DNA from: Armatimonadota bacterium
GTDB taxonomy: Bacteria; Armatimonadota; SYMT01
Assembly (NCBI GenBank): GCA_041690135.1
Contig: JAWLHY010000002.1
Span: 880,342-944,341 of the forward strand
Length of the DNA: 64,000 nucleotides
Reading direction: 5' to 3'
In this document: positions 1,672 to 24,771 of the stretch, piece by piece
Layout: each line of letters starts with the position of its first letter
Numbering within the stretch: position 1 is the stretch's first letter
Notes under the pieces: generated by a model
Told to the model about the DNA's origin: nothing
What the model saw: the letters and a program-made list of their open reading frames with translations, nothing else
The model's database searches: none
Program-made: the position numbers and the translations under genes

Positions 1672-1726
1672 ACGGAGAGGGTGGGATTCGAACCCACGGA
1701 GGGTTGCCCCTCACCTGTTTTCAAGA
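1672..1726. repeat. att site: 55-bp direct repeat duplicating the 3' part of tRNA-Ser
   Basis: ACGGAGAGGGTGGGATTCGAACCCACGGAGGGTTGCCCCTCACCTGTTTTCAAGA is identical at 1672-1726 and 24771-24825. Confidence 0.97.
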
Positions 1727-1992: not shown

Positions 1993-3852
1993 ATGAAATT
2001 TAATGTGGGTGGGTTTCTGGAAGGGCTGGCGGCGGCGGAAGCCGGGACGGCAGCCGGTAAGGCGGCGGCGGTGCAGTTCATCCAGCGGCGGCAGGCGCAG
2101 GAGTTTCAGCAGCGGCTGGCGGGTCTCCGTGCGGCGGGAGACGCATGGAATGACCAGCAGGGGCGGCAGGTCAACACCCGAAACCTGGCGGGGCGCGAAC
2201 TGGTGAGCCTCGCCCGCATGCAGGGGCTGGACCCGAAAGCGCGGGAAGAGCTCATCCGGCAGGGCATGACCTACTTTGACCAGGCGGCGGTGCTCGGTGA
2301 GGTGCCAAACCCCTACGGGCCGGAAGCCTTCCAGAGGTTCTTGCAGGGCACGCCTTACGGGAAGGGGCTCGACGTGGCCCCCACGCCGCCCGTGGGGCCG
2401 CAGAGAGCGCCCCTTACCCTGCCGAAGGGCGAGGGGCCGTTATTCCGGAAGCCGGCGGCCAAGGCGATTGTGGAGCCGATCCGGGACGCTGCGGACCGGG
2501 CGCGCATCCAGGGGATGGCGGACCGCTACGGGAGCCTGCAGCAGCTCCTGGTGGACCTGGAAGCGGGGAAAGTCACGGACGCGCAGGCCTGGGAGAGTTT
2601 CCGGAAACTCGGACCGACGCCCGAACTGGAACCGCTCCGGAAGTGGAGCGCGGGCGCCGGCGCGCGGATCGGGGGACTGCTGAAGGGGGGCGCATTCACT
2701 CCGCAGGCGCGGGAGCAGGCGCTAGAACTGCAGGCAGCCCTGGAAGAGGCGGCCTCGGCCTTTCCGGTCGATCCGGCGGCCCTGGAACCGGTGCGGGGGC
2801 GCTACCTGGCTTTCCTGCGGGATCCGCGCAACTATCGACCCGACACGCAGCAGTTCCGGGAAGTGCAGGAACAGACCCGCAAAGACGAACAGGAAACGCG
2901 CCTGGCGCAGGGTGCCCACCAGCGGAACCACGCGTATCTGCAGGGGATCGCGAATGCGCTCCGCGCCGGCAATACGGGGCAGTTCCGGGAACTGGTCGGC
3001 CAGCAGCGGGCCTTCGTGGCCGCGCAGCCGGCGGGATACGGGCTGCGGGTGTATGGCGGCGAGGCCCTGGACCCTACCCAGCGGCGAAAGGTCGCGCGCC
3101 GGGTGCCGGGTGAGGGTAGAACGGTCACCAGCCCGGAAACGGACGAGGAAGCCGCCGGCAGGGTGCTGCTGGAAGCCCGGCGGTTTGTGGACGGACCGGA
3201 AGGCGTGAAAGCCCTCATCCAGGGGGCGCGAGGCGAGTTGATGCGCGTGTTCCGGCCCGGTCGCTGGGAGGCGCTTCCGGCTGCAGAACGGCGTACGCTG
3301 CTGGAACAACTCGCCGACCTGACCCAGGAGTTGGGGCTGCCGAAGGTCCTCTCGGAAGGGCTGTACGGCCGTCTCACGCCGTTTGAGCGGGCGCTCGTGG
3401 AGAACCGGACCACCGCGCGCGCCGAGGCGAACCGGCACGTGAAGGAACGACAGGCGCTTACCGGGACCGTCGCGCGGAAGGTCGAGGCGGGGCATCTGAC
3501 GCCCGTCCAGGGGAATATCGTAGGGCTGCTGGTTGAGGATCTCGACCGGCTGCAGGGGGAAGCGGCAGAGCTCCGGCGCGTGCATCCCGAGGAGCGGACC
3601 GACGATCAGCGGAAGCGGCTGGAAGTGCTGACGCGCGGGTCGGGAGTAGTCGAACGGGTCCGGCGGGCGATCCGCGACCTGCTGAACCCCGGGCGCCGTA
3701 ACTGGCCGGCCATCCCCAACAAATGGAGCCCGGCCTTCCAGGGTGCGCGGCGGCAGGCAGTCGCCCGTTACCGGGAACGGTTCGGGGATCCCGACCGCGA
3801 CACGCGGCGAGAGCTGTACTATCTGGTCGAGGAAGGCCTCCTGCGACCGTGA
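1993..3852 (+). CDS. Hypothetical 619-aa helical/coiled-coil protein
   Basis: Long ORF with GC-rich codon usage; GGAGAGG RBS upstream; no recognised catalytic motif. Confidence 0.8.
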   Translation: MKFNVGGFLEGLAAAEAGTAAGKAAAVQFIQRRQAQEFQQRLAGLRAAGDAWNDQQGRQVNTRNLAGRELVSLARMQGLDPKAREELIRQGMTYFDQAAVLGEVPNPYGPEAFQRFLQGTPYGKGLDVAPTPPVGPQRAPLTLPKGEGPLFRKPAAKAIVEPIRDAADRARIQGMADRYGSLQQLLVDLEAGKVTDAQAWESFRKLGPTPELEPLRKWSAGAGARIGGLLKGGAFTPQAREQALELQAALEEAASAFPVDPAALEPVRGRYLAFLRDPRNYRPDTQQFREVQEQTRKDEQETRLAQGAHQRNHAYLQGIANALRAGNTGQFRELVGQQRAFVAAQPAGYGLRVYGGEALDPTQRRKVARRVPGEGRTVTSPETDEEAAGRVLLEARRFVDGPEGVKALIQGARGELMRVFRPGRWEALPAAERRTLLEQLADLTQELGLPKVLSEGLYGRLTPFERALVENRTTARAEANRHVKERQALTGTVARKVEAGHLTPVQGNIVGLLVEDLDRLQGEAAELRRVHPEERTDDQRKRLEVLTRGSGVVERVRRAIRDLLNPGRRNWPAIPNKWSPAFQGARRQAVARYRERFGDPDRDTRRELYYLVEEGLLRP

Positions 3853-3902: not shown

Positions 3903-4394
3903 TCAGAGATCAGCGTCACGCTTGAAGACAGCGATAACTCCTAGGAGAACCCCCACCAGGCGGGGCAGGTCGTGAGTCAGGATTGTCCCGAACGACCAAG
4001 TGAAGTTATCCGGTGAGATACCTGCTAGAACCGGATTAAGCAGCATCCAGGCCACTCCCAGGACGATGGCAACCGAGCGGCGGGAAAAGGGCGCAACCCA
4101 GGCCGCCCCAAAGATCGAAGCTGTAGGGATGACCAGACGCGAAAGGGTTTGCTCCCAGACTGCCAGTGTTTCAGCACTCAGCCTTATGGACGCTTCAGGG
4201 TTCACACCACCAAAGGACACCATGAGTGCCCAGTGCAGAGGGAATGTCGCAAGAAAGCCGATCAACACACCTGCGGGCAACACCAAGATCCAGCGGACCA
4301 TGCATATGAGGAGCGACGGACGGGGTTCGGGGTCATTGTGTGCGTCGCTGGGTTCCGAGTCCCAGCTGCGGTAGGCGAGGCGGGCTTGTTGCAC
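3903..4394 (-). CDS. Hypothetical membrane protein, ~4 TM (start may be ATG 4301)
   Basis: Several hydrophobic segments (WILVLPAGVLIGFLA, VAIVLGVAWMLL, LVGVLLGVIAVF). Confidence 0.6.
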   Translation of the reverse strand: MQQARLAYRSWDSEPSDAHNDPEPRPSLLICMVRWILVLPAGVLIGFLATFPLHWALMVSFGGVNPEASIRLSAETLAVWEQTLSRLVIPTASIFGAAWVAPFSRRSVAIVLGVAWMLLNPVLAGISPDNFTWSFGTILTHDLPRLVGVLLGVIAVFKRDADL

Positions 4395-4549
4395 AACTGC
4401 ACTCCTTCCAGGTTGGTAGGCACTCTACTAATGGCTTGCCTGTGAGTTCTGTAGAGAACCTGTAAGTTCCTTGATCGATTTCACGGTGGCTTACTAATGC
4501 AGGTGAAGGGGCAGGCGACCCCCAGGGATCGCCTGCCGAGAGGAACGCG

Positions 4550-4810
4550 CTACCGGACGGGCTCCGGCGTGAGGTACTCCGCATCCGGAGCGTGGAACTC
4601 CAGACCGGTGCGGGGTTCGGGCTCGAGGAAGTGCGGCTGGCAGCCATACCACGTTTGCGAACAGCCGCAGGGGGCGTAGTCGTGCTCCGGATGCTCGCCC
4701 AGGTGCTTACCGCGTCCACGATAGACGGAGGCCTTGTGGTAGACGGCGCCGCAGCCGCCACAGGCGCGAAAGTCCGTCTCGTGCATCCGGTCCATAGCGT
4801 AGCTGGCCAT
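4550..4810 (-). CDS. Small Cys/His-rich putative Zn-binding protein (86 aa)
   Basis: ATG 4810 with GGAG RBS; MASYAMDRMHETDFRACGGCG...HDYAPCGC; C-terminal part of track ORF 4550..5233. Confidence 0.6.
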   Translation of the reverse strand: MASYAMDRMHETDFRACGGCGAVYHKASVYRGRGKHLGEHPEHDYAPCGCSQTWYGCQPHFLEPEPRTGLEFHAPDAEYLTPEPVR

Positions 4811-4866
4811 GAGGGTGCTCCGCCCGCGCGGAAGGGTGGGAAGTCCCCCACCCTTCCGGCAGGAGA

Positions 4867-5394
4867 TCAGGCCGCGACGGGGACCGCGACAGGCCGGCGC
4901 TCGGCGACCGGCTGGCCAATCTTGCCTGCGAGCTGCTGCAGGCGCTCGAACTGGGCGGGCGTGACGAACACCCCCAGACCCTGGTGCAGGGCGGCCACGT
5001 GCTTGCAGGAGAGGCCGGTATCCTGGCACACCCCGGCATCCCGGCAGGTGCAGGAAGAGGGCTCCGCCGCGACCGTATAAACCTCGCCGGAGAGGGAGAG
5101 GACGTGCCATACGGGCTGGTCGGGATCCGCGAGCCAGACATAACCGGGGCCTTCTTCCAGGGCGCGCAGGACGCGTTCTTGCTGGAGTTGCTGAAGCAGG
5201 GCTTCCCGCTTCTGATCGCAGGCAGGCAGGCACACCACGAAGTAGCGATTGGCGCTCCGGGCGCGGGTGCTTTCCAGAACCGTGACGCCCGTGTACTGGG
5301 GATCCTCGCGCAGGCGGTCCGCAAACGCGCGGGCCGGCTCTTCGGGCATGAGCTTCGACCGGTAACCGGGGCCTTCGTGAGTTAAAACAACCAT
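4867..5394 (-). CDS. SWIM zinc-finger protein
   Basis: ATG 5394 preceded by GGAGG; GEVYTV...SCTCRD...SCKHVAAL matches the CxC-x(n)-CxH SWIM motif. Confidence 0.85.
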   Translation of the reverse strand: MVVLTHEGPGYRSKLMPEEPARAFADRLREDPQYTGVTVLESTRARSANRYFVVCLPACDQKREALLQQLQQERVLRALEEGPGYVWLADPDQPVWHVLSLSGEVYTVAAEPSSCTCRDAGVCQDTGLSCKHVAALHQGLGVFVTPAQFERLQQLAGKIGQPVAERRPVAVPVAA

Positions 5395-5524
5395 GCTGAT
5401 CCTCCGGGATCTGACAGGGAACGGGGCGCTGATCTTAGCGGGTCTGGGCGCCCCGTTCGTGTGTTTCTGGGCAGGCAGGGTGAAGCGGTAGAGGCCGAGG
5501 GGACCCGTCGGCTGCGCTGCCGCA

Positions 5525-5659
5525 CCGTGCTTGCGTGAAAGCGACATTTTGCGGGGGCGGGCAAAGCGCAAGCCCCCTAGCCCGAAGGGTGCCGAAGGCA
5601 GGCTTGCGCTTTGATCCGAGCGCAGCGACCCCGCGTTAAAATGACGCACGCAAGCACGG
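5525..5659 (+). promoter_or_regulatory. Candidate single-stranded-DNA promoter / ssi-like hairpin (Frpo-type)
   Basis: Nested inverted repeats 5525-5537/5647-5659, 5545-5556/5629-5643 (imperfect) and 5562-5574/5601-5613; GAA-triloop mini-hairpins; TTGCGC (5604-5609) and TAAAAT (5637-5642) lie in the 3' arm. Confidence 0.7.
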
Positions 5660-6561
5660 GAAGGAGATTCCGCCCGCAGGGCACCGCATTGGGTGGCGGG
5701 CGGGCACAGGAGAGCAAGATCGCGGTGGGCGAGCCGGGGATGCCGGTCGCTGTTTGCCGGGAGCCCCGGAGCGCCGACCGTATCCGCATCCCTCACACCC
5801 AGCGCCTGGGGAGCACAGACGCGGCGGGCGCAGAGGAGCGGAGAGAACTGAACGGAAGCGAGAACGGAGCCCGGAGCGGGAACGGGAACGGAGCGACGGT
5901 GGGCCTGGGGCGGTCCGTCGCCCGTGGTTAGCCCGTGCCGTAGTTTGGCGGGGGCGGGGTGGCGGTCCGCCCAGTAGTCAGGCCGGCCGGAGCGAAGTGG
6001 GAGTGAGAGCGGGGCGGAGTGGCAGCGGACGGGAAGGAACGGAGCGGGGACAGCCGGCCGTGGCCCCTGGTGACACGGGATCCGCACCGAACCCCCGTAA
6101 GAGTGACGAGACGGGCAGGCGTGTGGCGCATCCCACACCGGCCCCGCACGCCCGGCAATGGAGACGGAGCCCACTGCTGCGACCGTGTGCCGGGCCTACG
6201 GCAGCCGAACGAGCCTTCTCACTTTGCCGAGACCGGTTCGGGAGTGGCCTGGGTGTCCGAAATAGGAGTAGGAGTAGGAGTAGGACCGCGCACGCCCTGA
6301 CAAGCGTTCTGGCGCTCGCCGTCGATAAGCCCGCTTCTCATCGGGGCCGCCGCTCGGGGGTGGCGGGTGGGCGCTGGAAGGTCTGGGTTGCCGCGCCGTC
6401 CCCGTCGTACGGGTCAGGCGCACCGCATCCGATGTCGGAAAGCGCCTGGAGTGCGCAGACGCGGCGGGCACGGAGGAGCGCAGAGAACGGTGCCTACCCA
6501 ATAGAGTAAAGTGCGGCCGGAAACGCGATTTCGGGGCCTGTCGAACATCAGATCGGCAATG

Positions 6562-8457
6562 CTAGTGTAAGGAGCTAGGGTTGCTGAGCCCAGAAGGCGA
6601 TAGGAGCTTCTCACGAACCTGAAGATCATCTGGCCCGAGTTCGAGATGAGCTTTAATATTGTGTTGTTCTTGTTTAAACCAATCGATCATATGGGACGGT
6701 AGTTTCTTGCAGATCCAGTTCGATGCAAGATCCGCTTCCCCAGCAATGAGAGCGTTGGCATAGAACCCGGCGATGCTCCCCGTCTGGACATCACTTTCGG
6801 ACGACCAAGTGTAGTCCAAACTCTCCCGATACGCATCCATTCGCTTCCTCGCCAGGAATGGGAACTGAGCTGTGACTGTGCTGAATTTACTACCATCCCA
6901 GCCTACAACATGCGATATATCTGAATCGTCTGCATTGCTCCTTTCATAACCCAGGCTAACACTCACGGCTACCTCGGATATTCCGTTGCTGTCCATATCG
7001 GCAACTTCATAACCATTACTATTATTGATCGATCCTATGGTTAGACGCGTCACTTTCCCATCGTGAAGGCGGAGTATCTCAAACGACTGAAAGCCTCCGG
7101 AGCCTTCGCTCACACCCTTGAGACAAAGTTCATCTTCAGCCATATTATCGAGATTAGCGAATACCACTTCAACGAACGAGTCGTCAAAGGTATGTAGAAC
7201 TAGCCCTTTCTCATCTATCAACTCCACTCGTTGTTGTGGATATTCCAAGGCTAGATCTCCTAATGCAACCTTATACTTTGACCATCGCCATGTCCGTTTT
7301 AAAGTCCCCCTAAGTTCCGGGATGGGAACTGGGGTTGATTTATGATCTGATGTTTGCCTAATACCCGCCATTTGAACACTACCGTGCGTATACCAGAATA
7401 CACAACCGACCAGTGCTGGGGTTAGCAGGCATCCGGCGATCCAGTGCCAACCAAATGATTTTCCTAGAGTTGGATGGGTTTGTTCAATCGTTGACTCCCA
7501 ATCGACAGTTGGGTTGGACCCGGCAGTGCGGCACTGGAAGGTAATGTCGTTTATTTGATTGAGAGCTTCAACATCAGATCGTAGATTTGCTGTTCTTACG
7601 ATAATATTAGCTGTAGCAGCACCGAGATTCCAACCAGCTGATCCAAGACCTAGCCCGGCCTGTGCAGCAAAAACCGAAATCCAGCTTCCTCCGAATTTCA
7701 GTGCAATGAAACCGACCGCTGATCCACCTATGGCGCCGAATAATAAGTATGCCGGAATCCACTCCAGATGGGGATTTATAGCAAGCCGCTCTAACCGTAG
7801 GTTGAGCCGCCTCAGCTCAACCAAACGCATAGCACGTTCCTGAAAGACCACCTCTCTCCATTGAGCTATCTTCTTTTCGGACGCTGCCAGTAACAGACTC
7901 TTCTGGGATGCTTGATAGGCATATCGGTAGGCTGATTGCCATGTGCCATGCCGCAATGCCGTAACACTCATTTCCAAGAGCGTGTCGCCCTTCGTAAGCA
8001 GTGATAGGGTTAACCCTATGCCTGCCATAAGCGAAAGTGGGACAAATACGTGCGGTGCCGTCAATAAGCCGAGCACCTTCATTGCGGTACTGATAGTCCC
8101 GAAACTGGCCCCCATCATTCCGAGAGCGGATGCGGACGCCATGAAGATCCCGAATCCTGTAGCATCTGCCGCAGCGGCCATCCCCATGCTCGTGGCTGCC
8201 GTGATTAGACCTGCAGCAAAGGCAGTAGGAGTTGAAGTATCGATCCCAGGGTGACGCAGACGAAACGCCTGCATTTCAGGAGTGGAGACGACTGCTCGCC
8301 ATGGTGAAAACATCCACATCAGACCAAGCGCGACAATTGCGGCACCGATGCTTATCAAATCTGTCGGGGTGGCGGCAAGCCTTCCCGTGAAGCACCCAAT
8401 GATCAGACTCAGGACTAGCGAAAATGATAGAGAGCTCTTATAGGGCAATTTGTGCAT
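6562..8457 (-). CDS. Hypothetical multi-pass membrane protein with an extracytoplasmic C-terminal domain carrying FG-GAP/VCBS-like motifs
   Basis: Likely start MHKLPYK (8457); many hydrophobic Gly/Ala helices; ANLDNMAEDEL and VADMDSNGISEVAV motifs; low GC. Confidence 0.7.
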   Translation of the reverse strand: MHKLPYKSSLSFSLVLSLIIGCFTGRLAATPTDLISIGAAIVALGLMWMFSPWRAVVSTPEMQAFRLRHPGIDTSTPTAFAAGLITAATSMGMAAAADATGFGIFMASASALGMMGASFGTISTAMKVLGLLTAPHVFVPLSLMAGIGLTLSLLTKGDTLLEMSVTALRHGTWQSAYRYAYQASQKSLLLAASEKKIAQWREVVFQERAMRLVELRRLNLRLERLAINPHLEWIPAYLLFGAIGGSAVGFIALKFGGSWISVFAAQAGLGLGSAGWNLGAATANIIVRTANLRSDVEALNQINDITFQCRTAGSNPTVDWESTIEQTHPTLGKSFGWHWIAGCLLTPALVGCVFWYTHGSVQMAGIRQTSDHKSTPVPIPELRGTLKRTWRWSKYKVALGDLALEYPQQRVELIDEKGLVLHTFDDSFVEVVFANLDNMAEDELCLKGVSEGSGGFQSFEILRLHDGKVTRLTIGSINNSNGYEVADMDSNGISEVAVSVSLGYERSNADDSDISHVVGWDGSKFSTVTAQFPFLARKRMDAYRESLDYTWSSESDVQTGSIAGFYANALIAGEADLASNWICKKLPSHMIDWFKQEQHNIKAHLELGPDDLQVREKLLSPSGLSNPSSLH

Positions 8458-8694
8458 GTGGGTTTCACTATGGTTAGGGCAGTGCGTTTTTGCGCGATAA
8501 CTACTCGGCCACGCAACCGTCCACGAGCATCCACACACCCATTGCTACTTCAAGAGGCATTGAACCAACGTTGGACGGCGAAGCGAGAGAATTGATAGCA
8601 ACCACTGCTGCCAGATTACGCCGGGCACGCAGAGCGAACTGGAGTGTAACGACCTGATTGAAGCTGCGGTGCCCGCTCGAATGGGTATCCGAGT

Positions 8695-9396
8695 TTACCC
8701 GCCGCACCGGCCGCAGGCCGTGTAGCCTTGGCCCTTCGCGACTTTGAGATTGATCGCGATAGAACTACGACGAAGTGAACTGCAGCCGGCGCGGTGATAC
8801 TTCTCGCCGGTGCGGGTGATGTAGACGGTGCGCGCTTCCACTGCGGGACGTGCGGGAGCACGAGCGACCACGGCGGGGCGTGGGTTGGCCGGTCGCAGCG
8901 CGGCGGGTTGGGGTGCCGGGCGGCTGGGGTTCCGGAACGCCCACGGCGGCTGCGGGTTGGCATCGGCCCACAGGCCACGGCGGGCGGCGCGGGCCTCGAT
9001 TTCCGCTTTGGCGATCTCGGTCTCGCTGCGGCCGTACTGGTGATACCACCAAGCGTAGCCGTTGCGGACCAGGGATAGATTGAGGCTGGAACCGTCGCCG
9101 AGTTTGACGACCCCTACCTTCCGACCGTAACGGTCCGTCTCCTTCACCTCAACCGTAACAGTCTTCTGGAAGCACTTCCCGGCGGTGAACTGCTTGGCAA
9201 CGCTGCCGAAAGGCTGGGCCGATTCCGGGGCGTCCACGGCGTGCAGGCGCACCTTTACCTGGGTCGTGCCGCGAAGGACGGTGAGAGTGTCGCCGTCGGA
9301 GAGTGCAACCACTTTCCCCGTAAAGGTGTCCTGCCCCACGCAGGGCACGGCGATCAACGAGCAGGCGAAGAGAAGAGGTAGGAATCTGCGCAACAT
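8695..9396 (-). CDS. Secreted thermonuclease (SNase family) with a C-terminal Cys-containing (Ada-like metal-binding) domain
   Basis: GGAGG RBS; signal peptide; SDGDTL, VRLHAVDAPE, DRYGR, ARRGLW; C-terminal VYITRTGEKYHRAGC...YTACGRC. Confidence 0.9.
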   Translation of the reverse strand: MLRRFLPLLFACSLIAVPCVGQDTFTGKVVALSDGDTLTVLRGTTQVKVRLHAVDAPESAQPFGSVAKQFTAGKCFQKTVTVEVKETDRYGRKVGVVKLGDGSSLNLSLVRNGYAWWYHQYGRSETEIAKAEIEARAARRGLWADANPQPPWAFRNPSRPAPQPAALRPANPRPAVVARAPARPAVEARTVYITRTGEKYHRAGCSSLRRSSIAINLKVAKGQGYTACGRCGG

Positions 9397-9817
9397 AGAG
9401 CCTCCTGCGGTCGAGGTGAGACGGAAGCAGGGTGACACCCGGATGGTTCGTCAAGTGCTGGGGGAATCCCTCCTACCCTACTGTTCGTGGGAGCCGACCT
9501 GGGAACGGCGAGTGGGCGGCGAGTGAAGATAACACCGAGGCACTGGATGGGCACACAGTGGATGCCGCCGAAAGCAGGGGCGTAGGGAGCGGCCGGACCG
9601 AGGAGCGGAACGGACGGGTAGCTTATCGAAAGCTATCGCACGTTCCGGAGTGAGGACAACGTCGGGCACGAAACACCCCCGAATCCGGCATAACGCGGCG
9701 GCCACGCGAGAGACGTGACCGCGATCACCTATGTCTGACGCCTGTTTCCGGGGTATGAGAGTATCAAACGGACGGATAGGCCATCCGAAGAGCAGGCGGT
9801 TAGCAGGTGAAAGGACC

Positions 9818-10300
9818 ATGGCGTGGAGAAAACCACCCCGGAAGCCATACAAACCTAGGAGTGCAGAGGGCACCTCTGCCATAATGGCAACCGTGCGTAG
9901 CACGAACAACAAGGCTGAGGTGGCGCTTCGGAAAGAACTTTGGCGACGGGGGTATCGTTACCGGCTTTACGATCACCATCTTCCTGGCCGGCCCGACATC
10001 CTCTTTCCTGGCGCACGCGTTATCATCTTTGTAGACGGTGATTTCTGGCACGGCCGCGCGCTGATCGAGCAGAACCCCGAAGCATTAGTGGAAGCCCTTA
10101 GAACTGAGCGTCGCGATTGGTGGCTGGCAAAGATCTCGCGAACTGTTGAGCGTGACCAGAAGAACACAGCACTTCTAACTGAGATGGGGTGGAGTGTTCT
10201 TCGGTTGTGGGAAAGTGAAGTAAAGACTGATCCTCGCGCGGCAGCGGACAGGGCTGCTCGCTTTATCGATGATGCTCGCCGACGATTGCATGCCCCATAG
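9818..10300 (+). CDS. vsr: Very-short-patch repair endonuclease
   Basis: S-AIMATVRS-N-KAEVALRKEL, LPGRPDI, IFVDGDFWHG, WSVLRLWE motifs; next to a C5 methyltransferase. Confidence 0.92.
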   Translation: MAWRKPPRKPYKPRSAEGTSAIMATVRSTNNKAEVALRKELWRRGYRYRLYDHHLPGRPDILFPGARVIIFVDGDFWHGRALIEQNPEALVEALRTERRDWWLAKISRTVERDQKNTALLTEMGWSVLRLWESEVKTDPRAAADRAARFIDDARRRLHAP

Positions 10301-10374
10301 ACGGAGCGGTAGGAGTTCTTCAGGCCCACCAAAGCAGTTCCACGACACCAGATTTCCGTGCTTCCAGCCACGAC

Positions 10375-11679
10375 TTGGTGGCACCTAGTAAACCAATGCG
10401 CAGTACAGAACAGCATCTACTTCCGTTCGTTGACCTTTTCTGCGGTGCAGGTGGGCTTTCCGTTGGGTTTGAGCAAGCTGGCTTCAAAGCAGTCTACGCT
10501 AACGACTTCGATCCACTCGCCGGCGCTACATATGCTTACAATCACCCGGAATGCCACGTGTGCGGCGATGACGTTGCGGAAGTCACCGCCGACTCAATAA
10601 AGAAGGCGGCTAATATAGACCGTGTCCCCCTGGTAATCGGTGGCCCGAATTGTCAGGGTGTCAGCCTTCGGGGCAAGAGAAACCCTGATGATCCAAAGAA
10701 TAGGGCCTTCTTCCACTTTAGAAGGTTGATTGGAGAGCTAAAGCCGGATTGGTTCGTGATGGAAAATGTGCCGGGGCTCCTTCACCGCCACAACCAATCG
10801 CTGTTGACCGCGATCTTTGAGGCATTCCATGACCTAGGCTATCGTTGTGGAGGTGAAGTTCTCCTGGCGGCTGACTATGGAGTCCCTCAACTACGTTACC
10901 GATTCATCCTCATCGGGAATCGCTGGGGTGAGCCCATTACCTTCCCCGACGCCACACACGCCTGTCCGATTCCGATTAGTACGGACCTCCACCTGTTTCC
11001 GGCTGACGAGCGGCCGCCGTGGCTAACTGTCCGTGACGCACTCTCTGATCTGCCCGCTATCGAGAATGGGGGGGGGCACGCCGAGATGGATTACCCGCCA
11101 ACCGATGGTCTACTTCCTTATCAAGAGTGGTGCCGCACTGGCGCGACAGTGCTAATGAACCATGTATGCCATCGTACCCCCCCCCGGAATATTGAACTGA
11201 TCAAACACATACCGCCTGGCAAGAACTGGAAGGCCATCCCCGAACAATTGCGGCCCGAGCGGTTTAAGCATGTGGCGCTAAAGGATCACACAACCACCTT
11301 TGGTAGACTGCGTTGGGACATGCCGTCTCGCACGGTGACCACTTACTTCAACAATATCAGTTCGGGCGCATTCACCCATCCGGAGCAGCATCGGGGCATT
11401 TCCGTGCGTGAAGGTGCGAGGTTACAGGCCTTTCCCGACACACATCGTTTCCTCGGAACTCTCGCGCGACAATACCGGCAGGTTGGAAATGCCGTACCTC
11501 CGCTACTGGCACGATACGTGGCCACGCACACACACCAACTTCTAACGCAACACCCTGTCTCAATGGAGCACACACACGAGGCGGCGGTGCAGTTCGACCC
11601 CCGAGTTGGCGCACTAATCTATCTCCGACCTGTCCAAGGAATGCGGTTCAATTTGGACAGGTATCTCGTAAGGAGCTAG
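10375..11679 (+). CDS. DNA (cytosine-5)-methyltransferase (start may be ATG 10396)
   Basis: Motif I VDLFCGAGG; motif IV GGPNCQG; motif VI MENV; motif VIII PQLRYRF; motifs IX-X REGARLQAFPD and QVGNAVPP. Confidence 0.95.
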   Translation: MVAPSKPMRSTEQHLLPFVDLFCGAGGLSVGFEQAGFKAVYANDFDPLAGATYAYNHPECHVCGDDVAEVTADSIKKAANIDRVPLVIGGPNCQGVSLRGKRNPDDPKNRAFFHFRRLIGELKPDWFVMENVPGLLHRHNQSLLTAIFEAFHDLGYRCGGEVLLAADYGVPQLRYRFILIGNRWGEPITFPDATHACPIPISTDLHLFPADERPPWLTVRDALSDLPAIENGGGHAEMDYPPTDGLLPYQEWCRTGATVLMNHVCHRTPPRNIELIKHIPPGKNWKAIPEQLRPERFKHVALKDHTTTFGRLRWDMPSRTVTTYFNNISSGAFTHPEQHRGISVREGARLQAFPDTHRFLGTLARQYRQVGNAVPPLLARYVATHTHQLLTQHPVSMEHTHEAAVQFDPRVGALIYLRPVQGMRFNLDRYLVRS

Positions 11680-11682
11680 CAA

Positions 11683-12372
11683 GTGCCATTCCCTTCAATG
11701 GAACAGGTTATTGAGTCGGTCCGACGCTTGAACTACGATGACAAAGGCGACGAGATCCACACCTGCGGCCTGTGGCATATCTTGATCTTTCTTCGTCATC
11801 GCCGGCTCCACGGTATGCAGGAAGAGTACACGTTGTATGGAGATACGTTAGCCGTAGCGGCGTTTGACATCCTGGGGATCAACTTTGCCGACAATGCGCG
11901 AGATTTGGCCTACTATGAACCGGCAGCCACGGAAAAAAAGCCGCCGGAATATTTCCGAGTTGCTGGCGGTGTTCGCAACACCATTACGAACCGATTTCAG
12001 ACTGGTCTAAGTGGACTTGGGCCGAGGCAGCCTAATGTGGTCAGGATCAGTAAGGCGACGCTTCCATTAGACGTGAAACTCCATCCTGACTGGATTGACA
12101 ATCTTCGTGACCCTTCGCGGGGCAGAGGCAATCATGTAATTCTCGATCAACGAACCCGGGAGTTGATAACTTGGTTGTTCCGCTTCGGCGTGCCTTGCGT
12201 TGAAAATAGTACGAGTAGCCTAGCAGTGCAGCAGAGGAAGTATACTTTGCAACCGCAACCGAATTTGCGACTTCAACCACTCCCGACATCTAGTGAGGAG
12301 TTGAGAGCTTTAGTCGAGGATTTTTTGGGACTGCAGGCAGACCAGCGCAGCTCACTCCTTCCGAACTTGTAG
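11683..12372 (+). CDS. Hypothetical protein; possible specificity subunit or detached N-terminal domain of the McrB-like gene
   Basis: Starts 4 nt after the MTase stop; same frame as the downstream McrB-like ORF, separated only by TAG plus 3 codons. Confidence 0.7.
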   Translation: MPFPSMEQVIESVRRLNYDDKGDEIHTCGLWHILIFLRHRRLHGMQEEYTLYGDTLAVAAFDILGINFADNARDLAYYEPAATEKKPPEYFRVAGGVRNTITNRFQTGLSGLGPRQPNVVRISKATLPLDVKLHPDWIDNLRDPSRGRGNHVILDQRTRELITWLFRFGVPCVENSTSSLAVQQRKYTLQPQPNLRLQPLPTSSEELRALVEDFLGLQADQRSSLLPNL

Positions 12373-12381
12373 GTTTTTAGA

Positions 12382-13680
12382 ATGCCGTATGAATGGGAAA
12401 GTGACGACCCGATTGTGCCTGTAGACTTGGCCGCCGCATTGCGGACGGAATATGGGGTCGCGGTCAATCAAGATAACGGTGTGGCTGACGATGGATGGGA
12501 TGAAGAGGGGCAGGAACCCGAGCAACTCCCACTAAGCCCGCGGATCCGCGTGGATCCGCGGGTCAAGCGAATGATCCGGGTGGCGATCGCCTCTTATCCG
12601 GCAGTGATCCTAGTTGGGCCGCCAGGAACTGGTAAGACCTCCCTGCTGCGAGAGGTGCTCGAGGAAGTAAATTCAAACCATGGCGCTTACGGGTTCAGCG
12701 CGCCACCGGGTGAGCCAATCAGAGTGACCCCTGATGAGAGTTGGACAGCGCGCGAACTGGTAGGTGGGGAAACGATTGACGCTGAGGGTAGATTGGCGTT
12801 CCGGCCGGGACATGTGTTGCGCGCTATTGCGGCTAATAAGTGGCTGGTGCTGGACGAGGCCAATCGGGGCGATATGGACAAGATCTTTGGTCCCATACTC
12901 ACCTGGCTGAGCGAGAACGCGGGCAGCCCCCCGGTGGATATCGGCAGGTTAAATACTGCTGACAATGCCCCTATCGTGCAACTTGCCTGGAGTGACGCTG
13001 AAGATTGTAGGGTGGACGAGATTTCTTCGGGTGAGGCTGATGGCGAAAGGTATTTGACTGCCGTGCAGTATGTCGCGGGGAAGCGGTGGAGACTGCTGGC
13101 ATCTTACAATCCTCTTGATGTCAATCGTGTGTTCCGCTTTGGTTTGGCTCTCGCTCGGCGCTTTGCCGAGATCCCAGTTCCAGCCCCATCACCCGAGGCA
13201 TTCCGTGTGGTGGTTAGGGATGCGGCGACTGGACTCCCTGAACAGGTGCCGATGACACTGGCCGCGCTATATGAAGCGCACCGGGCGGACACTTCCACGC
13301 GGCTAGGGCCCGCGATCTTTCTCCAAGCGATTCCCTATGTCCGCGCTGCGTTGGCTCTCCAAGGCCTTTTGGTGACGGATCAACCAAACGCTGGCGAGGA
13401 TGGCGCAGTGGAACAGATAGAGGCGCGCGGGCCGGAACATGAGGCTGAAGCTGATGCAGAGCGCAATCAGGTAACTGGTGAGGCGGCGGATGCGAGGCAG
13501 GCAACGCCTGAGCTCCTTATGCAACTCTTAGCCGAGGCTTACATGACCGTAGCCGGTAAGTATCTCGCGAAAAGAGAGGAAGGTGAGTTGGAGCAACTGT
13601 GGCGGCGAATCGAAAACAGTAATGCGCTGCCTTTGGGAGAGTGGGAATGGATAGTGGCGCTGTTACCGGACTTGGCGTAG
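12382..13680 (+). CDS. McrB-like AAA+ GTPase/ATPase
   Basis: Walker A GPPGTGKT; Walker B LVLDEANRG-DMDKIFG; NxxD-like SYNPLD; ALARRF. Confidence 0.88.
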   Translation: MPYEWESDDPIVPVDLAAALRTEYGVAVNQDNGVADDGWDEEGQEPEQLPLSPRIRVDPRVKRMIRVAIASYPAVILVGPPGTGKTSLLREVLEEVNSNHGAYGFSAPPGEPIRVTPDESWTARELVGGETIDAEGRLAFRPGHVLRAIAANKWLVLDEANRGDMDKIFGPILTWLSENAGSPPVDIGRLNTADNAPIVQLAWSDAEDCRVDEISSGEADGERYLTAVQYVAGKRWRLLASYNPLDVNRVFRFGLALARRFAEIPVPAPSPEAFRVVVRDAATGLPEQVPMTLAALYEAHRADTSTRLGPAIFLQAIPYVRAALALQGLLVTDQPNAGEDGAVEQIEARGPEHEAEADAERNQVTGEAADARQATPELLMQLLAEAYMTVAGKYLAKREEGELEQLWRRIENSNALPLGEWEWIVALLPDLA

Positions 13681-14909
13681 CACCACCAATACCCGAGGCT
13701 GGCCTATTCGAGACTCTTCGGTCTTGGAGTGGAAAGGGGCAATTGTGGGAAGCCCTCGCGGCGGCTGCGCCGGAACCGCTAGCTAGCCGGCACTGGAGTT
13801 CTGGCGAAGTGGAGCGAAGAGCGCATCGGGTACTCTTTGAGCAGCTTACGCCATTCCTGGCCACGTGGCCTCGATCTCTTACCGAGTGGATGCACGTGCT
13901 CCCAGTGATTTCGCACCGTCGTCGGGAACTCGCTCCGGTCCCCAGTTCTGGTGTTTCATGGACAGAGACCCGAATGCGCGGTTGGCCGCCACGAGAGTTT
14001 GTGGTTCACTCCCGCCACCGGGACGCCGATACGGTTCTGCTGACAGCTCTCCGTTTCACCGTTGAAAGACTCTTGCGCGTCGCCACAGATGCGCGGTCAC
14101 TGGCAGGATCGTTAACTCACGCAGTAGACACACAGCTTCAAGTTGCTGCGCGGCTGATGGAAATAGAGCCACTGGCATCCGCTCAGCTGGCCATTCCGAC
14201 ACGCGCCGATGTGGCCGCCCTACGCTCCCAAGGACGGCCTTGGGGGGCTGTAGCGCAAGTAGCCGACTATTTGCGCCTACTTGACGGGACCGGTATTAGC
14301 GAACTAGCCACCAAGGCTGTAAGACCGGACCCGGAATTCGCTGGAGCTCTCTTCCATTTAGGGGTGCTGGGTGAACTTTTGCTGGCGCTATGCGAGCTTG
14401 GATTTACCATTGTTTCGCGGCGGCCGCTATCTGGCGGTTCCCCAGGACCGGCCTATCTAGTGAATACACCGGCCGGGGAGGTCTGGCAGTTATGGTTTGA
14501 GGCGGCTTCCATCCACAGCCATTCTAGGCGTCCATCTCCATATGCTGAAGCTCGCGCAGGTCTAGTCAATTCTGGCCCGCCAATTGGCGCTGACCTCATC
14601 CTAGTGCTACCGGGTTTTCGTGCACTCGTCATTGAGTGTAAGTATTCCGCAAGCGCAGCTTACGTAGCTAGCGGATACCACCAAGCGCTTTCGTACGCCA
14701 CCGAGATTCATCCATGGCTTGCCAAGCAGATCTTGACTACAGTAGTGGGACCGGAAGGTGTCGTTGGGACGGCGAGCTTCGGTAAGCTCCACTTTGGAGC
14801 AGTCGCCATAATGCCGCCGCAAGGCATCCGCCTTGCGCTCGCCCACTTGATGGGTTTACGGGACGGCATTTTGCCACCGTTCGAGACCGTCGACAATGGA
14901 GTTCGGTAA
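13641..14909 (+). CDS. McrC-like PD-(D/E)xK nuclease
   Basis: Overlaps the McrB-like gene; C-terminal ADLILV...VIECKYS...YHQALSYA nuclease-like motif. Confidence 0.72.
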   Translation: MGMDSGAVTGLGVAPPIPEAGLFETLRSWSGKGQLWEALAAAAPEPLASRHWSSGEVERRAHRVLFEQLTPFLATWPRSLTEWMHVLPVISHRRRELAPVPSSGVSWTETRMRGWPPREFVVHSRHRDADTVLLTALRFTVERLLRVATDARSLAGSLTHAVDTQLQVAARLMEIEPLASAQLAIPTRADVAALRSQGRPWGAVAQVADYLRLLDGTGISELATKAVRPDPEFAGALFHLGVLGELLLALCELGFTIVSRRPLSGGSPGPAYLVNTPAGEVWQLWFEAASIHSHSRRPSPYAEARAGLVNSGPPIGADLILVLPGFRALVIECKYSASAAYVASGYHQALSYATEIHPWLAKQILTTVVGPEGVVGTASFGKLHFGAVAIMPPQGIRLALAHLMGLRDGILPPFETVDNGVR

Positions 14910-18044: not shown

Positions 18045-19313
18045 CTATGAAGCGATGCGCAACGGGGGTGGTGGGAGACACCCGCGAGTGAATGAAGGTA
18101 GACAGGGCCGCGCTGGAACTGCCGTATCGTGTGCCACCTTCCGTGCGATCTCGATCAGCCGAGAGGAAGCGGCCTGGACGCCGGGCAGGTCACCTAAGGC
18201 GGCGGCTTCGTCCAGTGAAGGCCAGGAGGCGGAGAGTGCGTCGTCTTCGTGGTGATCGACCCCCACAAGGATTTCCGCCAACTCGCCCCAGGTCTCGCGG
18301 AGTAGCGCTTGGATACGCTCATCGTTCTGTCGAAGGGTGTCCGAAGCTCCGGTTGCCGAGAGCGCGGTATCGGTGGCCAGGAAAGCTCGCAGCCCGACCG
18401 GATCGGCCATCAGCCACGCGTTCCAGTCTTTGTAGCCGACGGGCCGGAGACGATGCACGCCGCCAACGAGAGGGCGAAGGCGCGTCAGCCACTTCTCGGC
18501 GGCCTGATCGCCTGGATCGTCGGCGTCCGTGGCGACGATAACGGGTCGCACCTTACAGGCGACGGAAAACCACGCAGGGAGGCTGGTGCCGAGGGTGGCG
18601 AGGGTCGGGAGCCCGCAAACGTGAAGCGAGAGAGCATCAATCGGAGCTTCGGTTACCACCAACGCGGAAGTGGACCAAGCGCCGGGAGTTGCAAAAGCAC
18701 CCGATGAGAGGGTGCCACGGGTGAGCGCTTTGGGGCCGAACTCATCCGGAGAGATGGCGCGGCCCTGGACACCAACGAGAATGCCGGAGCGATCTCGCAC
18801 CGCAATAACCACGCGCCGAGACGTAGCTACAAGTTTCCATTGGTCATCTTCCTTGACCCAGTGAGGCCAGCGCGGGTGGTAACGGACCTTCGCCGCTAGC
18901 GCCAGGTCTAGGGGGATGCCGCGCTTGGTCAAGTACTCGGCGCCCGGTGTCCCTGGCAGAGGCACCAGCCCCTGGAGCACGCGTTTCCAGTCCGTCATGT
19001 CCGTGGTGACAGGCGCGGGGGAGGGTGGTAACTCCAGGCGAGCCTTGCGCTTGCGCCGGGTGGTCTCTCGGGGGCGGTCCTCCCACCATTCGCGTAACCT
19101 ACCGGCCGAACGCGGATGGCCTGGGCCGGTGGGGCAGCGTGGGCAATTCCAGAAACCCGATTCCATGTTCGCCGAAAGGCACCGGTGAGCGTCGTCCCGA
19201 GGCTTCGTGTGACCACAGAACGGGCAGAGGAAACGGCGCTCGCGTTTTCCTGGCGGAGCTAGAGGATCATAGGCCTCAAGCTCGGCGAGGGAAAGGAAGC
19301 TAGTGTCCCCCAT
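18045..19313 (-). CDS. Zn-finger + Toprim DNA primase-like protein
   Basis: CPFC...WNCPRC Zn finger; EYLTKRGI; Toprim VTEAPIDALS, ATDADDPG, KDWN; ATG 19313 with GGAGG overlaps the helicase stop. Confidence 0.88.
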   Translation of the reverse strand: MGDTSFLSLAELEAYDPLAPPGKRERRFLCPFCGHTKPRDDAHRCLSANMESGFWNCPRCPTGPGHPRSAGRLREWWEDRPRETTRRKRKARLELPPSPAPVTTDMTDWKRVLQGLVPLPGTPGAEYLTKRGIPLDLALAAKVRYHPRWPHWVKEDDQWKLVATSRRVVIAVRDRSGILVGVQGRAISPDEFGPKALTRGTLSSGAFATPGAWSTSALVVTEAPIDALSLHVCGLPTLATLGTSLPAWFSVACKVRPVIVATDADDPGDQAAEKWLTRLRPLVGGVHRLRPVGYKDWNAWLMADPVGLRAFLATDTALSATGASDTLRQNDERIQALLRETWGELAEILVGVDHHEDDALSASWPSLDEAAALGDLPGVQAASSRLIEIARKVAHDTAVPARPCLPSFTRGCLPPPPLRIAS

Positions 19314-20187
19314 TGCTAGCGGCCTCCGTGAACTGCTGCAAAGCACCGTGAAAGGATAGGCGCACCTGTTGACCGGGGGAACCGTTGCGGTTCTTATCGA
19401 GCGTCAGGAGCACTTGCGTGGAACCCGGTGCGGCCACCACGGCATCTTTGGGGGGCGAGAGATCCCACACGGATTCCGCGCCATATTCGAACCGGCGGGT
19501 GCCCGCACTGGCATTCATGCCACCGGAGCCCATCTGAGCGCGGTTGCGCTCGGCGACGGCTACAACCGGGCACTTGAGCTCCTGGGCGAGCGCGCACACC
19601 AGGCTGATGTGCTGATTGAGGGCATCATACTCATTCTGTGCATCCCCCCAGCCTTGAGCCCAACTGTGAAGACTGTCAATCACGATTAGTAGGTGGGGGT
19701 GGTCGCCACGCGTAGCGAGTGCCACGTCTTGTAGCCAGGCCGGGGTAGCATACTCCAGCGTAGCATCCCCTAGCACAAGACCGGGATACTTGGCGACGGT
19801 CTGCTGCGCGAGGGCCAGGGATTCCGCCGGCAGGAGTTCGCCGGATTTGAGTCTCCCGAGGTAAGTTCCAGTCACCCGCGCGGTGAGACGGCGGAATAGC
19901 TCGAGCCGGCCCATTTCGCAGGACAGGAAAAGAGCCGGGCACCCGCATTCGGAAGCGATTTGCAACGCGAGTGCGGTCTTGCCCGTGCCCGGTTGGCCGT
20001 GCATCACGTGCAGCCCCGGCGAGAGGAACCCGCCGAGGATCTGGTCCAATCGCGACAGGCCGGTAACTGGACCCCGTGGGGTCTTGGCTTGCCGTGCCTT
20101 ATGGGCTAATGAAGCGTCCTCCTCCCACACGGAGAGAAGCTCCCCCAGGCGGGATACTGTCAACCTACTACCCTGTTCAGCACCCAT
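19300..20187 (-). CDS. DnaB-like SF4 helicase (C-terminal motor domain only)
   Basis: TGLSRLDQILGG; GQPGTGKT; FLSCEM; IVIDSL; FEYGAE; DKNRNG; AAGGAG RBS before ATG 20187. Confidence 0.9.
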   Translation of the reverse strand: MGAEQGSRLTVSRLGELLSVWEEDASLAHKARQAKTPRGPVTGLSRLDQILGGFLSPGLHVMHGQPGTGKTALALQIASECGCPALFLSCEMGRLELFRRLTARVTGTYLGRLKSGELLPAESLALAQQTVAKYPGLVLGDATLEYATPAWLQDVALATRGDHPHLLIVIDSLHSWAQGWGDAQNEYDALNQHISLVCALAQELKCPVVAVAERNRAQMGSGGMNASAGTRRFEYGAESVWDLSPPKDAVVAAPGSTQVLLTLDKNRNGSPGQQVRLSFHGALQQFTEAASNGGH

Positions 20188-20281
20188 GACGGGGCTCCTT
20201 TCGAATAAATCCCGGCGCAAACGGCCGGAGCGTGTGAAACGATGACCAGGCGAAGGGGGTGGCGGGAACCAGCCGCCCCCC

Positions 20282-21547
20282 TTAAAGCCTTAGAGTCTTA
20301 GCGAATGGAAATACCCGCTTCCAGGCACGAAACAGCCAACCCAACTGCCGGGATAGGTGAGAGTTTCTGCCGGGATAGGTGGGAGTTTCTGCCGGGATAG
20401 GTGGTGAGGTGCAGGTGTACAACAGCACCGGTCTTGCCGAAGAACCACACGAGCTTTGCCCAGTCGAGATGCGCCGTTCGGCATAGTGTGCGAGGTCGTC
20501 CCGCACGCACGGGGGCGGCGGAAGGTGGACTCGACGGTTGAGGAAGGCTTCAAGTTGCCCTCTGCGGGTGAGCGCATAGCGATCTTCCGGATGTGTCAGC
20601 ACATCATCGACCCAGTCCTTGAGCGGCATCCCATCGGGGGGAGCCGCCAGGCACTCCACATCGATTAACTGCCCCAAAGCGGCATAGAGGCTGTTGATGA
20701 ACTCTCCCGGATGGTCAAACTGGCGATCGGTTATCTCGATACCGGCCTCGTATAGGTGGCTCCGCCAACTCCGATAGCGGGGCTTAAAGGGAGAAGGTGG
20801 AAGGGAGACGTATTGGGGGGCATTCAGCCGCCAGTCCCTACGGAGATAACGCCCGAGGCGCTTCGCGGTGCGCTGGCGGTAGGGGTCGAGGTGAAGGAGC
20901 CGGGGGGAGAAAGCCGCGACAAAGTATCTGTTGTCGGAGAGGGCTGCGGCTACAAATGCTCCTGGACTATACACATAGATAAGAGCGCCCTGATTCTTGC
21001 CGTTCTCCGGGTGAATAGAGTCGATTTCCAGGAGTTGTGAGTCAATCCCATTAGTCTGAATCCGGAATCCCCTGATGTCGCACATTGCTTTCTTGCACTC
21101 TCTGAGTGCCTTGTCCAGGGGCTTCACGTGCCGATACCTGCAAATGTCGCGTAACGAAAGACAGGCTTTGGCCGGACGCTGGTAATGAAGCCAATGGAGG
21201 ATGGCAATGTCAAAGATATCTGCCAGCGTATCCTCTTTCATCTGCAGGAACTGAGATTCAACCTCGGACATGACGGCGTCACTATGCCGTAGCCACCAGG
21301 CATCGCCATACCGCTCTTCGGGCCGCCGTTCAGGTGACCAGGTTACAACGACCTCCGGGTTCTGGGCCTCTTGATAGTACCGGTTAGCTTCGGCAGGATT
21401 GCTTTGCCAATCGTCACGACGTACGAACGAGCGGTGTAGAACTTGGTCTACTGGGCCATTCGGCACTCTAACAATTGGTCCACAGTAGACAGGATGAGAT
21501 CTCCGGGCGGCAAGACTATTCAACGGTCTTGGTGGCTGCTTCCCCAT
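20282..21547 (-). CDS. Putative replication initiator protein
   Basis: Lies directly upstream of the helicase and primase; iteron-like repeats in its 3' end; LDPYRQRTAKRLGRYL motif recalls plasmid-encoded proteins (from memory, unverified). Confidence 0.6.
   Translation of the reverse strand: MGKQPPRPLNSLAARRSHPVYCGPIVRVPNGPVDQVLHRSFVRRDDWQSNPAEANRYYQEAQNPEVVVTWSPERRPEERYGDAWWLRHSDAVMSEVESQFLQMKEDTLADIFDIAILHWLHYQRPAKACLSLRDICRYRHVKPLDKALRECKKAMCDIRGFRIQTNGIDSQLLEIDSIHPENGKNQGALIYVYSPGAFVAAALSDNRYFVAAFSPRLLHLDPYRQRTAKRLGRYLRRDWRLNAPQYVSLPPSPFKPRYRSWRSHLYEAGIEITDRQFDHPGEFINSLYAALGQLIDVECLAAPPDGMPLKDWVDDVLTHPEDRYALTRRGQLEAFLNRRVHLPPPPCVRDDLAHYAERRISTGQSSCGSSARPVLLYTCTSPPIPAETPTYPGRNSHLSRQLGWLFRAWKRVFPFAKTLRL
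20345..20403. repeat. Three iteron-like repeats with 22-bp period (putative oriV)
   Basis: CTGCCGGGATAGGTG at 20345, 20367 and 20389; 8-bp-period CTTA repeats at 20281-20304. Confidence 0.85.
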
Positions 21548-22348: not shown

Positions 22349-22387
22349 CAGGTGTCACACTGACAATACAAAATCGTGTGACACCTG
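22349..22387. promoter_or_regulatory. 12-bp perfect inverted repeat (putative operator)
   Basis: CAGGTGTCACAC-N15-GTGTGACACCTG with an AT-rich spacer, between the divergent operons. Confidence 0.6.
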
Positions 22388-24723: not shown

Positions 24724-24771
24724 AAGCCTTCCCGGCCCGGTTGCAGGGTGTATCGATCTTACAGTTAAGCA

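Follow-up and report, generated by a model that had tools for sequence, protein, structure and literature searches.

The question raised by this locus is whether a folded single strand of DNA can serve as the start signal of a small operon. In a 64,000-nt stretch from an Armatimonadota bacterium (assembly GCA_041690135.1, contig JAWLHY010000002.1, positions 880,342 to 944,341 of the forward strand; hereafter the window), a 135-nt branched hairpin lies upstream of two leftward-reading genes, for a SWIM zinc-finger protein and an 86-aa cysteine-rich (Zn) protein, which we call the SWIM-Zn operon. A preliminary description of the window had proposed that the hairpin is a promoter that takes shape only when the + strand is single-stranded and folds. 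Experiments have established single-stranded DNA (ssDNA) promoters in a handful of enterobacterial plasmids, and wider surveys have been made by similarity to those. We find that the hairpin is real and has an exceptional fold, and that it is conserved, strand-biased, built from DNA-type mini-hairpins and placed where a template-strand signal of an establishment operon would sit. That it works on single-stranded DNA, being formed by the + strand as the template of the SWIM-Zn operon and acting as a promoter or primer, we consider possible rather than probable.

Fold, conservation and strand bias of the hairpin

The stems, loops and hexamers of the preliminary description are all found at the positions it gave (Table 1), and so are the 27-nt spacing of the two hexamers and the 17 nt that are left when 5619-5628 is omitted. 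When both strands were folded with DNA parameters, as had also been proposed there, both came out far below their shuffled versions, the + strand being the better of the two (-53.0 kcal/mol, z -8.72, versus -51.8 kcal/mol, z -9.18, for the - strand; 0/200 shuffles as good in either case). In the minimum-energy DNA fold the first apical hairpin takes the form CCCT/AGGG around a 7-nt loop, and CCC-GAA-GGG is an alternative register. By energy per nucleotide the hairpin ranks 6th among the exact-arm inverted repeats of its own genome, G000 (exact 11-nt arms, 60-200 nt apart, 864 merged candidates, those of >320 nt not folded); other high-ranking repeats were rejected as objects of the same kind, having long outer stems and unstructured interiors. 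The stretch is single-copy in this 9.1-Mb genome. It is also noncoding: the long open reading frame (ORF) 4867-6174 is an in-frame extension, and 11/11 aligned SWIM members start at the ATG equivalent to 5394. Rfam 15 recognized only a tRNA in the whole window at gathering thresholds, and gave 0 matches at E <= 1 in 5300-6700.

A covariance model built from the window and G006:C86 pair gave three strong matches in 2 of 13 genomes, namely the window itself and two copies in genome G006 (G006:C86:16348-16493 and G006:C21:18947-19092). The C86 homologue is 146 nt long and folds as DNA with -58.7 kcal/mol (z -6.2) on the + strand versus -49.7 kcal/mol (z -4.2) on the - strand. Compensatory changes, which the preliminary description had proposed to look for in homologous elements, are present and the stems are conserved: in the consensus of the window and C86, 5 of 36 pairs have changed on both sides with the pairing kept and 0 are broken, and in the three-sequence comparison 6 pairs show double changes. 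The upper stem, for instance, has gone from CAAAG/CTTTG in the window to GGCCGG/CCGGCC in G006, and the apical and side hairpins differ in sequence between the genomes with their form kept, the apical counterparts in G006 being CCGC(GACC)GCGG and CCCC(GGA)GGGG. The C21 copy is 89% identical to that of C86 over 446 nt, comprising the hairpin and ~300 nt to its right (G006:C21:18947-19374), and its homology stops inside the outer 5' arm, directly after the stop codon of an unrelated 832-aa gene. A C-terminal integrase fragment lies ~2 kb upstream of this copy.

Between the window and G006 the right flank of the hairpin shows no conservation. Further covariance-model matches in G007, G003 and G001 (E 0.19-0.39) do not fold alike and were judged to be chance, as were short DNA matches in G008 and G030 (E about 0.0095). 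Among the viral contigs none carried the SWIM protein and 0 the pattern of the big hairpin, and the plasmids gave no match to either a DNA or a protein query. The genome contigs searched for the SWIM module returned only the already known loci of G004 and G006. In metagenome contigs, 0/600 pattern matches were confirmed with the 11-protein alignment, and the DNA pattern of a second, smaller hairpin (5419-5458) gave 0 matches.

With DNA parameters, the + strand folds better in 3/3 copies, by 1.2 kcal/mol in the window, 9.0 in G006-C86 and 6.7 in G006-C21 (-44.5 versus -37.8 kcal/mol); RNA parameters favour the + strand of G006 by 8.5 kcal/mol. Of the 6 substitutions that separate the G006 copies, 3 make a G.T pair on the + strand and 1 on the - strand, as read by eye. 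On the + strand the window shows two C(GAA)G loops and one C(GCA)G, and G006 has one GACC tetraloop besides C(GGA)G and GCGAAGC; on the - strand the window loops would read TTC, TTC and TGC. Every copy has an exact GCGNAGC as its side hairpin, and the GNA loops differ between the genomes only at N. Both genomes hold the mini-hairpin motif of a GNA triloop closed by C-G on a G-C stem (GCGCAGC and two CCGAAGG in the window, GCGAAGC and CCGGAGG in G006).

According to the part of a 2026 review (PMC13037366) concerned with such motifs, GCGNAGC and GNA loops are extraordinarily stable DNA mini-hairpins (Tm 70-76 C), in agreement with the stability that the preliminary description had ascribed to them, and they occur in G4-type primase origins, RSF1010 ssiA (CCGAAGG) and the N4 hairpin promoters (GGA/GAA loops). 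In the genome of the window, GNA accounts for 7.0% (4373/62555) of C-G-closed triloop mini-hairpins; because of this base rate, two or three such loops on one strand are unlikely to have arisen by chance (0.07 squared to 0.07 cubed per strand), with the count of the first apical loop depending on a register other than that of the minimum-energy fold. We take the GNA-type loops on the + strand as the strongest evidence for action as folded DNA on that strand.

Table 1. Positions of the hairpin, its parts and the surrounding features in the window
Feature	Position	Strand	Remarks
Branched hairpin, 135 nt	5525-5659	+ (favoured folding strand)	lower stem, side mini-hairpin, upper stem, two apical mini-hairpins
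Outer stem CCGTGCTTGCGTG / CACGCAAGCACGG	5525-5537 / 5647-5659		direct reading of sequence
Stem CATTTT / AAAATG	5545-5550 / 5638-5643		direct reading of sequence
Stem GCGGGG / CCCCGC	5551-5556 / 5629-5634		direct reading of sequence
Upper stem CAAAGCGCAAGCC / GGCTTGCGCTTTG	5562-5574 / 5601-5613		direct reading of sequence
Apical mini-hairpins CCC-GAA-GGG and TGCC-GAA-GGCA	5581-5589 and 5590-5600	+	each with CCGAAGG, C(GAA)G triloop
Side element AGCGCAGCGA	5619-5628	+	holds the GCGCAGC mini-hairpin
Side mini-hairpin GCGCAGC	5620-5626	+	exact GCGNAGC motif; GCGAAGC in both G006 copies
-35-like hexamer TTGCGC	5604-5609	+	3' arm; 3/6 match to TTGACA; kept in 3/3 copies
-10-like hexamer TAAAAT	5637-5642	+	3' arm; 5/6 matches with A2, T6; AATAAT in both G006 copies
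Second conserved hairpin GAACGGGGCGC-loop-GCGCCCCGTTC	5419-5458		between big hairpin and ribosome-binding site; loop motif CTTAGCGG common to G006
SWIM zinc-finger gene, 175 aa	4867-5394	-	ATG 5394; GGAGGA ribosome-binding site 5405-5400
Gene of 86-aa Cys-rich (zinc-ribbon-like) protein	4550-4810	-	syntenic with SWIM in G006, G004
attL, 55-bp direct repeat identical to tRNA-Ser 3' end	1672-1726		perfect repeat of 24771-24825
tRNA-Ser(tga)	24772-24856	-	with attR repeat 24771-24825; right end of island
Tyrosine integrase	23457-24620	+	Phage_integrase E 4.5e-21
Toprim/DUF7146 primase	18045-19346	-	island gene
DnaB-like helicase	19300-20220	-	island gene

The hairpin as a possible promoter on single-stranded DNA

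The - strand carries SWIM, Zn and their next three neighbours on each side (3903-9438), so that the + strand is their template. The hairpin is found 130 nt upstream of the SWIM ATG in the window and 146 nt upstream in G006. Synteny among the window, G006 and G004 is limited to SWIM, the Zn protein and ~270 nt upstream, meaning that the module is self-contained and that the hairpin forms its right edge. Directly after the Zn gene, G006 and G004 carry ardC (ArdcN E 4.7e-36, with a zincin peptidase domain, and ArdcN E 2.8e-33, respectively); the window's copy is without ardC and has a membrane-protein gene in its place. The preliminary description had likened the two genes to early establishment or anti-defence genes, an idea with which ardC in both relatives fits.

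We infer that RNA polymerase would recognize the folded strand, that the element would pass through a single-stranded stage and that the genes may serve establishment. Once single-stranded, the + strand would fold at 5525-5659 into a hairpin with a three-way junction; three d(C-GNA-G) mini-hairpins would lock this hairpin, and its lower stem would present TTGCGC and TAAAAT on the 3' arm, 17 nt apart along the arm and with the -10 partly unpaired. Host RNA polymerase would then start near 5649 (template position ~5535) and copy the + strand leftwards, giving a transcript that would run through a 130-nt leader into the SWIM and Zn genes, and into ardC in relatives. Like Frpo, this transcript might in addition serve as a primer for synthesis of the complementary strand.

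The promoter geometry is self-consistent, the 3' arm being the non-template and the + strand, read leftwards, giving SWIM sense RNA. In the window the hexamers stand as TTGCGC-27-TAAAAT and in G006 as TTGCGC-28-AATAAT, and subtraction of the 10-nt and 11-nt side elements, respectively, leaves 17 in each case. Both -10 hexamers keep A2 and T6 in DNA of 64-73% G+C. No sigma-70-like duplex promoter was found in 4400-6700 of the window or in the G006 locus (L012 3600-5200) by a scan that asked for at least 4/6 in each hexamer and at least 9/12 overall.

The concept of the Frpo-type ssDNA promoter is given in parts of PMC11541004 and PMC9849209; a section of the former (Samuel et al.) reports Frpo/ssi candidates by BLAST at E <= 1e-6. 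Like Frpo/ssiD of F and ColIb-P9, the element described here forms a long imperfect hairpin on the template strand of the genes that follow it, folds better on this strand than on its complement (F control, -119.1 vs -111.6 and -153.6 vs -140.3, i.e. 7-13 kcal/mol), carries on its 3' arm -35- and -10-like hexamers directed towards the base of the hairpin, and has an anti-restriction gene (ardC) among the downstream genes, here in relatives. The leading genes of the F control are oriented toward oriT; the -35/-10 boxes published for F Frpo were not located in our DNA fold of the F regions. Unlike Frpo/ssiD, the present hairpin is 135-146 nt long (~320 nt in F), has a weak -35 (3/6), is branched with a side mini-hairpin in the spacer, and occurs in a GC-rich bacterium outside Enterobacteria, on an integrase/primase island in which no relaxase, oriT or type IV secretion system was found. 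Hairpins with 3-nt GGA/GAA loops also act as transcription signals in the early promoters of phage N4, as described in part of PMC13037366; those of N4 are single hairpins with a 5-bp stem that are read by a dedicated phage polymerase, whereas no such polymerase was seen in the island.

Several observations speak against a promoter. The -35 has only TTG in common with the consensus (3/6), and the pair reaches 8/12, below the scan threshold; the host's own promoter consensus may differ. The 17-nt spacing needs RNA polymerase to tolerate a three-way junction in the spacer, and we know of no precedent for a side hairpin inside a promoter spacer; moreover, when counted on the 5' arm, the complements of the window's hexamers are separated by 15 nt instead of 17. 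The promoter as first proposed is supported in part, by its leftward geometry, the conserved fold, the + strand bias, the DNA-type loops, the 17 nt that G006 also keeps once the side hairpin is left out and ardC in relatives; what tells against it includes the weak -35, the 8/12 score and the junction in the spacer. With RNA parameters the window strands are nearly tied (-77.0 for + and -78.0 kcal/mol for -). The comparative evidence is thin, with 3 copies in 2 genomes and a G006 pair that is 89% identical, and the G006:C21 copy does not adjoin SWIM and has a damaged outer stem. A blastn search (distant mode) of 72,556 plasmid records with 5395-5700 found no similarity at E <= 0.01, and against the F leading region and ColE1 nothing beyond 11-mers appeared at E <= 1 (F: E 0.5); as judged by sequence, the hairpin is outside the Frpo family.

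The preliminary description had seen no relaxase in the element, and in G000, G006 and G004 there is indeed no match to PF03432, PF08751 and PF03389 (relaxase), PF02534 (coupling protein) or PF03135 (VirB4). Among the scanned island ORFs no relaxase, type IV coupling protein (T4CP) or VirB4 was found; nine island ORFs are family-less (1993-3852, 20282-21547 and 22378-23457 among them), and one of these may yet encode a novel relaxase. Any route to an ssDNA stage is therefore hypothetical. PF12696 gave one weak match, to a 1736-aa T4CP/HerA-like protein on another contig of G000 (C1). A conjugative, a phage-like or a strand-displacement lifestyle would each agree with ArdC and with the primase plus helicase.

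A more specific version of the promoter reading, which we hold to be doubtful, makes the hairpin a compact (135-146 nt) Frpo analogue, unrelated in sequence and beyond the classical plasmid hosts: an ssDNA promoter with a three-way junction, which three d(C-GNA-G) mini-hairpins would hold open to RNA polymerase and which would drive a SWIM/Zn-ribbon/ArdC establishment operon in integrative elements with no recognizable relaxase. It would imply that these elements enter or replicate via a single-stranded stage, a route undescribed in this lineage, and a hairpin that is Frpo-like in action would be a new structural variant. If the promoter is true, an independent and structurally distinct example would show that the ssDNA-promoter strategy is general, here in a GC-rich environmental bacterium and tied to an anti-restriction gene and an integrase/primase island. 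It would also provide a structural search rule (a template-strand hairpin plus GNA mini-hairpins) and make both the SWIM protein and the 86-aa zinc protein candidates for a role in early establishment or anti-defence.

Alternative explanations

The hairpin could instead function as RNA within the SWIM mRNA 5' leader, formed by the - strand and transcribed from a duplex promoter to the right, where it would regulate stability, translation or attenuation, perhaps via binding of the zinc proteins. Its position upstream of the operon, its co-conservation with the operon, the second conserved hairpin just before the ribosome-binding site and a strong RNA fold of the - strand (-78.0, z -7.54) are all in keeping with a leader, and the compensatory changes suit RNA too (6/37 pairs). 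In G006, however, the - strand folds worse, by 8.5 (RNA) and 9.0 (DNA) kcal/mol; the - strand loops UUC, UUC and UGC are not known stable RNA loops; there is no Rfam match even at E <= 1; and to the right there is neither a promoter-like site nor conservation of the flank between the window and G006. A leader of this kind seems to us unlikely. Should the hairpin prove to be an mRNA leader, or a priming site, in place of a promoter, it would be a clean, conserved and unclassified structured element.

A priming-only function would have the structure, strand bias and GNA mini-hairpins in common with the promoter: the hairpin would be a single-strand initiation (ssi) site on the + strand, read by PriA-type primosome proteins, DnaG or the island Toprim primase to start complementary-strand DNA synthesis, with no role in SWIM transcription. 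Among the nearest known systems are RSF1010 ssiA/ssiB, the sites of the RepB' primase, and the G4-type origins, which are likewise ssDNA hairpins with GNA-type mini-hairpins; the CCGAAGG mini-hairpin of ssiA, as given in part of PMC13037366, occurs twice at the apex here. The element likewise encodes its own primase and a hexameric-type (DnaB-like) helicase. It differs from the RSF1010 sites in being three times longer, branched and tied to an operon rather than to oriV iterons, in having a primase of the Toprim type, and in that no paired site on the opposite strand was seen. The G006-C21 copy without SWIM would also suit a priming site.

A further likeness is to ColE1 (NC_001371), in which the preliminary description had placed a 13-mer of the hairpin. 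The exact 13-mer was not found there; what is present is CCGAGCGTAGCGA at 1330-1342, near the origin, which is identical to the hairpin motif at 12/13 positions (2/200 shuffles gave a match). The shared core CGAGCG-N-AGCG holds a GNA mini-hairpin, and GAAGCGG is found both in G006 and in ColE1 (~1357-1363); the likeness to ColE1/pBR322 is limited to the short motif, with no wider alignment. We take the ColE1 stretch to be the primosome assembly site; a literature search for the AAGCGG primosome motif found no confirming paper. Against priming alone speak the tight linkage of the hairpin to the operon, at the right edge of the module and 130 / 146 nt upstream of the ATG, and the AT-rich hexamer that keeps A2/T6 in a stretch of 64-73% G+C; moreover, the G006 contig with the module has no primase homologue. 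We regard a site for priming alone as improbable.

Action as duplex DNA, in the form of a large palindromic operator, a cruciform-forming origin element or the recombination site of a sequence-specific protein, we also think improbable. GCTTGCG(Y) or its complement recurs at 5529, 5567, 5602 and 5648 in alternating orientation and is largely kept in G006, the surrounding 1.1-kb noncoding stretch has direct repeats and 8 GAACGG, the island has its own primase and helicase, and the G006-C21 homology breaks inside the outer stem, as expected of a recombination-prone palindrome. Yet the features without a partner on the other arm, namely the side mini-hairpin, both apical mini-hairpins and the GTT bulge, are conserved in type, for which duplex binding gives no need; in addition, the covarying positions lie outside the repeated 8-mer, and conservation in G006 does not include the remainder of the noncoding stretch.

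That the hairpin is the 5' domain of a + strand small RNA transcribed rightwards, in G006 with the ~300 nt that follow it, is very improbable: the G006 copies do share exactly the hairpin and these ~300 nt (89% over 446 nt), and + is the better-folding strand, but conservation between the window and G006 does not extend into the right flank, there is no Rfam match and no promoter-like site to the left, and GNA triloops are, by the account in part of PMC13037366, a stability motif of DNA rather than RNA.

The SWIM family and the island

The SWIM protein matches its Pfam family just below the cut-off (PF04434, E 0.0015, 18.5 bits versus a gathering cut-off of 19.6), and the motif residues C115, C117, C130 and H132 are invariant in the 11 aligned sequences. 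Its structure model is confident (pLDDT 91.5), and Foldseek of this model against the PDB gave no match at E <= 0.001; the protein-atlas matches (0.88) are small SWIM proteins, partly viral, and serve as leads only. The family is rare, with 10 proteins at E <= 0.001 in a 5.8-billion-protein collection, nine of them being further relatives at 52-82% identity, and matches in 4/61 related genomes, all from one family. The 86-aa protein belongs to no family in Pfam, PHROGs or NCBIfam. Between the SWIM stop and the start of the Zn protein, at 4830-4857, lies a hairpin with an 11-bp stem, GGAAGGGTGGG / CCCACCCTTCC; G006 has another GC-rich stretch there and G004 none.

The stems of the second conserved hairpin, upstream of the ribosome-binding site, are exact in both G000 and G006. 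Allowing up to 2 mismatches, its pattern was met in 43/401 genomes of the phylum, with exact matches only in G000, G006, G074 and G193, and the reversed control matched roughly two dozen genomes. This stem was accordingly rejected as a locus-specific marker, most of its matches looking like generic GC-rich terminator-type stems.

The SWIM gene of G004 breaks off at about residue 79 (G004:C51, L013 3740-3800) and a tRNA-like fragment stands in place of the hairpin region, which points to a further integration at, or close to, the module's hairpin side. The fragment reads like the 3' half of a tRNA and gave no ARAGORN call. A second mobile-looking region of the window's own genome, G000:C1:571428-595840, has an ArdcN domain split over two frames, very large family-less ORFs and a SWIM paralogue that is 40% identical to the SWIM protein of the window. 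Upstream of this second ardC-like locus and of the paralogue, only an ordinary 16-bp hairpin was found, and it was set aside as a counterpart of the big one.

To the right of the big hairpin, the 1.1-kb noncoding stretch contains a direct repeat of ~70 nt (5777-5848 / 6420-6488; 48-nt core, 88% identical, 640 nt apart). The GAACGG motif occurs 8 times over 5419-6490, four of them within 5850-5891, an iteron-like arrangement that is not conserved in G006. A motif, CGCTGTTTGCC / TGTTTGCCGGG, lies 90-260 nt right of the hairpin in both genomes (window 5748-5761; G006 locus L012 4649-4659 and 4743-4753, E 0.12 each), a recurrence that may be due to chance.

The operon and its hairpin belong to a ~23.1-kb island at tRNA-Ser that is bounded by a 55-bp perfect direct repeat. 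Besides the integrase, primase and helicase, the island contains a Vsr/Dcm pair, an AAA_5 ATPase, a staphylococcal-type nuclease and many family-less ORFs. A block of defence-type cargo spans 9731-14909 and comprises a Vsr endonuclease, a C-5 cytosine methyltransferase, a family-less 229-aa ORF, the AAA_5 (McrB-like) ATPase and its family-less 422-aa partner. The gene at 6562-8538 encodes a 658-aa multi-pass membrane protein of no family in Pfam, PHROGs or NCBIfam and has 48% G+C, against 65% G+C for the genome; it is probably separately acquired cargo. ARAGORN called a 96-nt tRNA-Arg(ccg) at 18965-19060, inside the primase ORF, with no Rfam match at the gathering threshold, and this is probably a false call. 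A second perfect repeat, of 24 bp (1844-1867 / 24700-24723), lies just inside attL and just outside the integrase-tRNA gap, and may be an arm-type site or the trace of a tandem integration.

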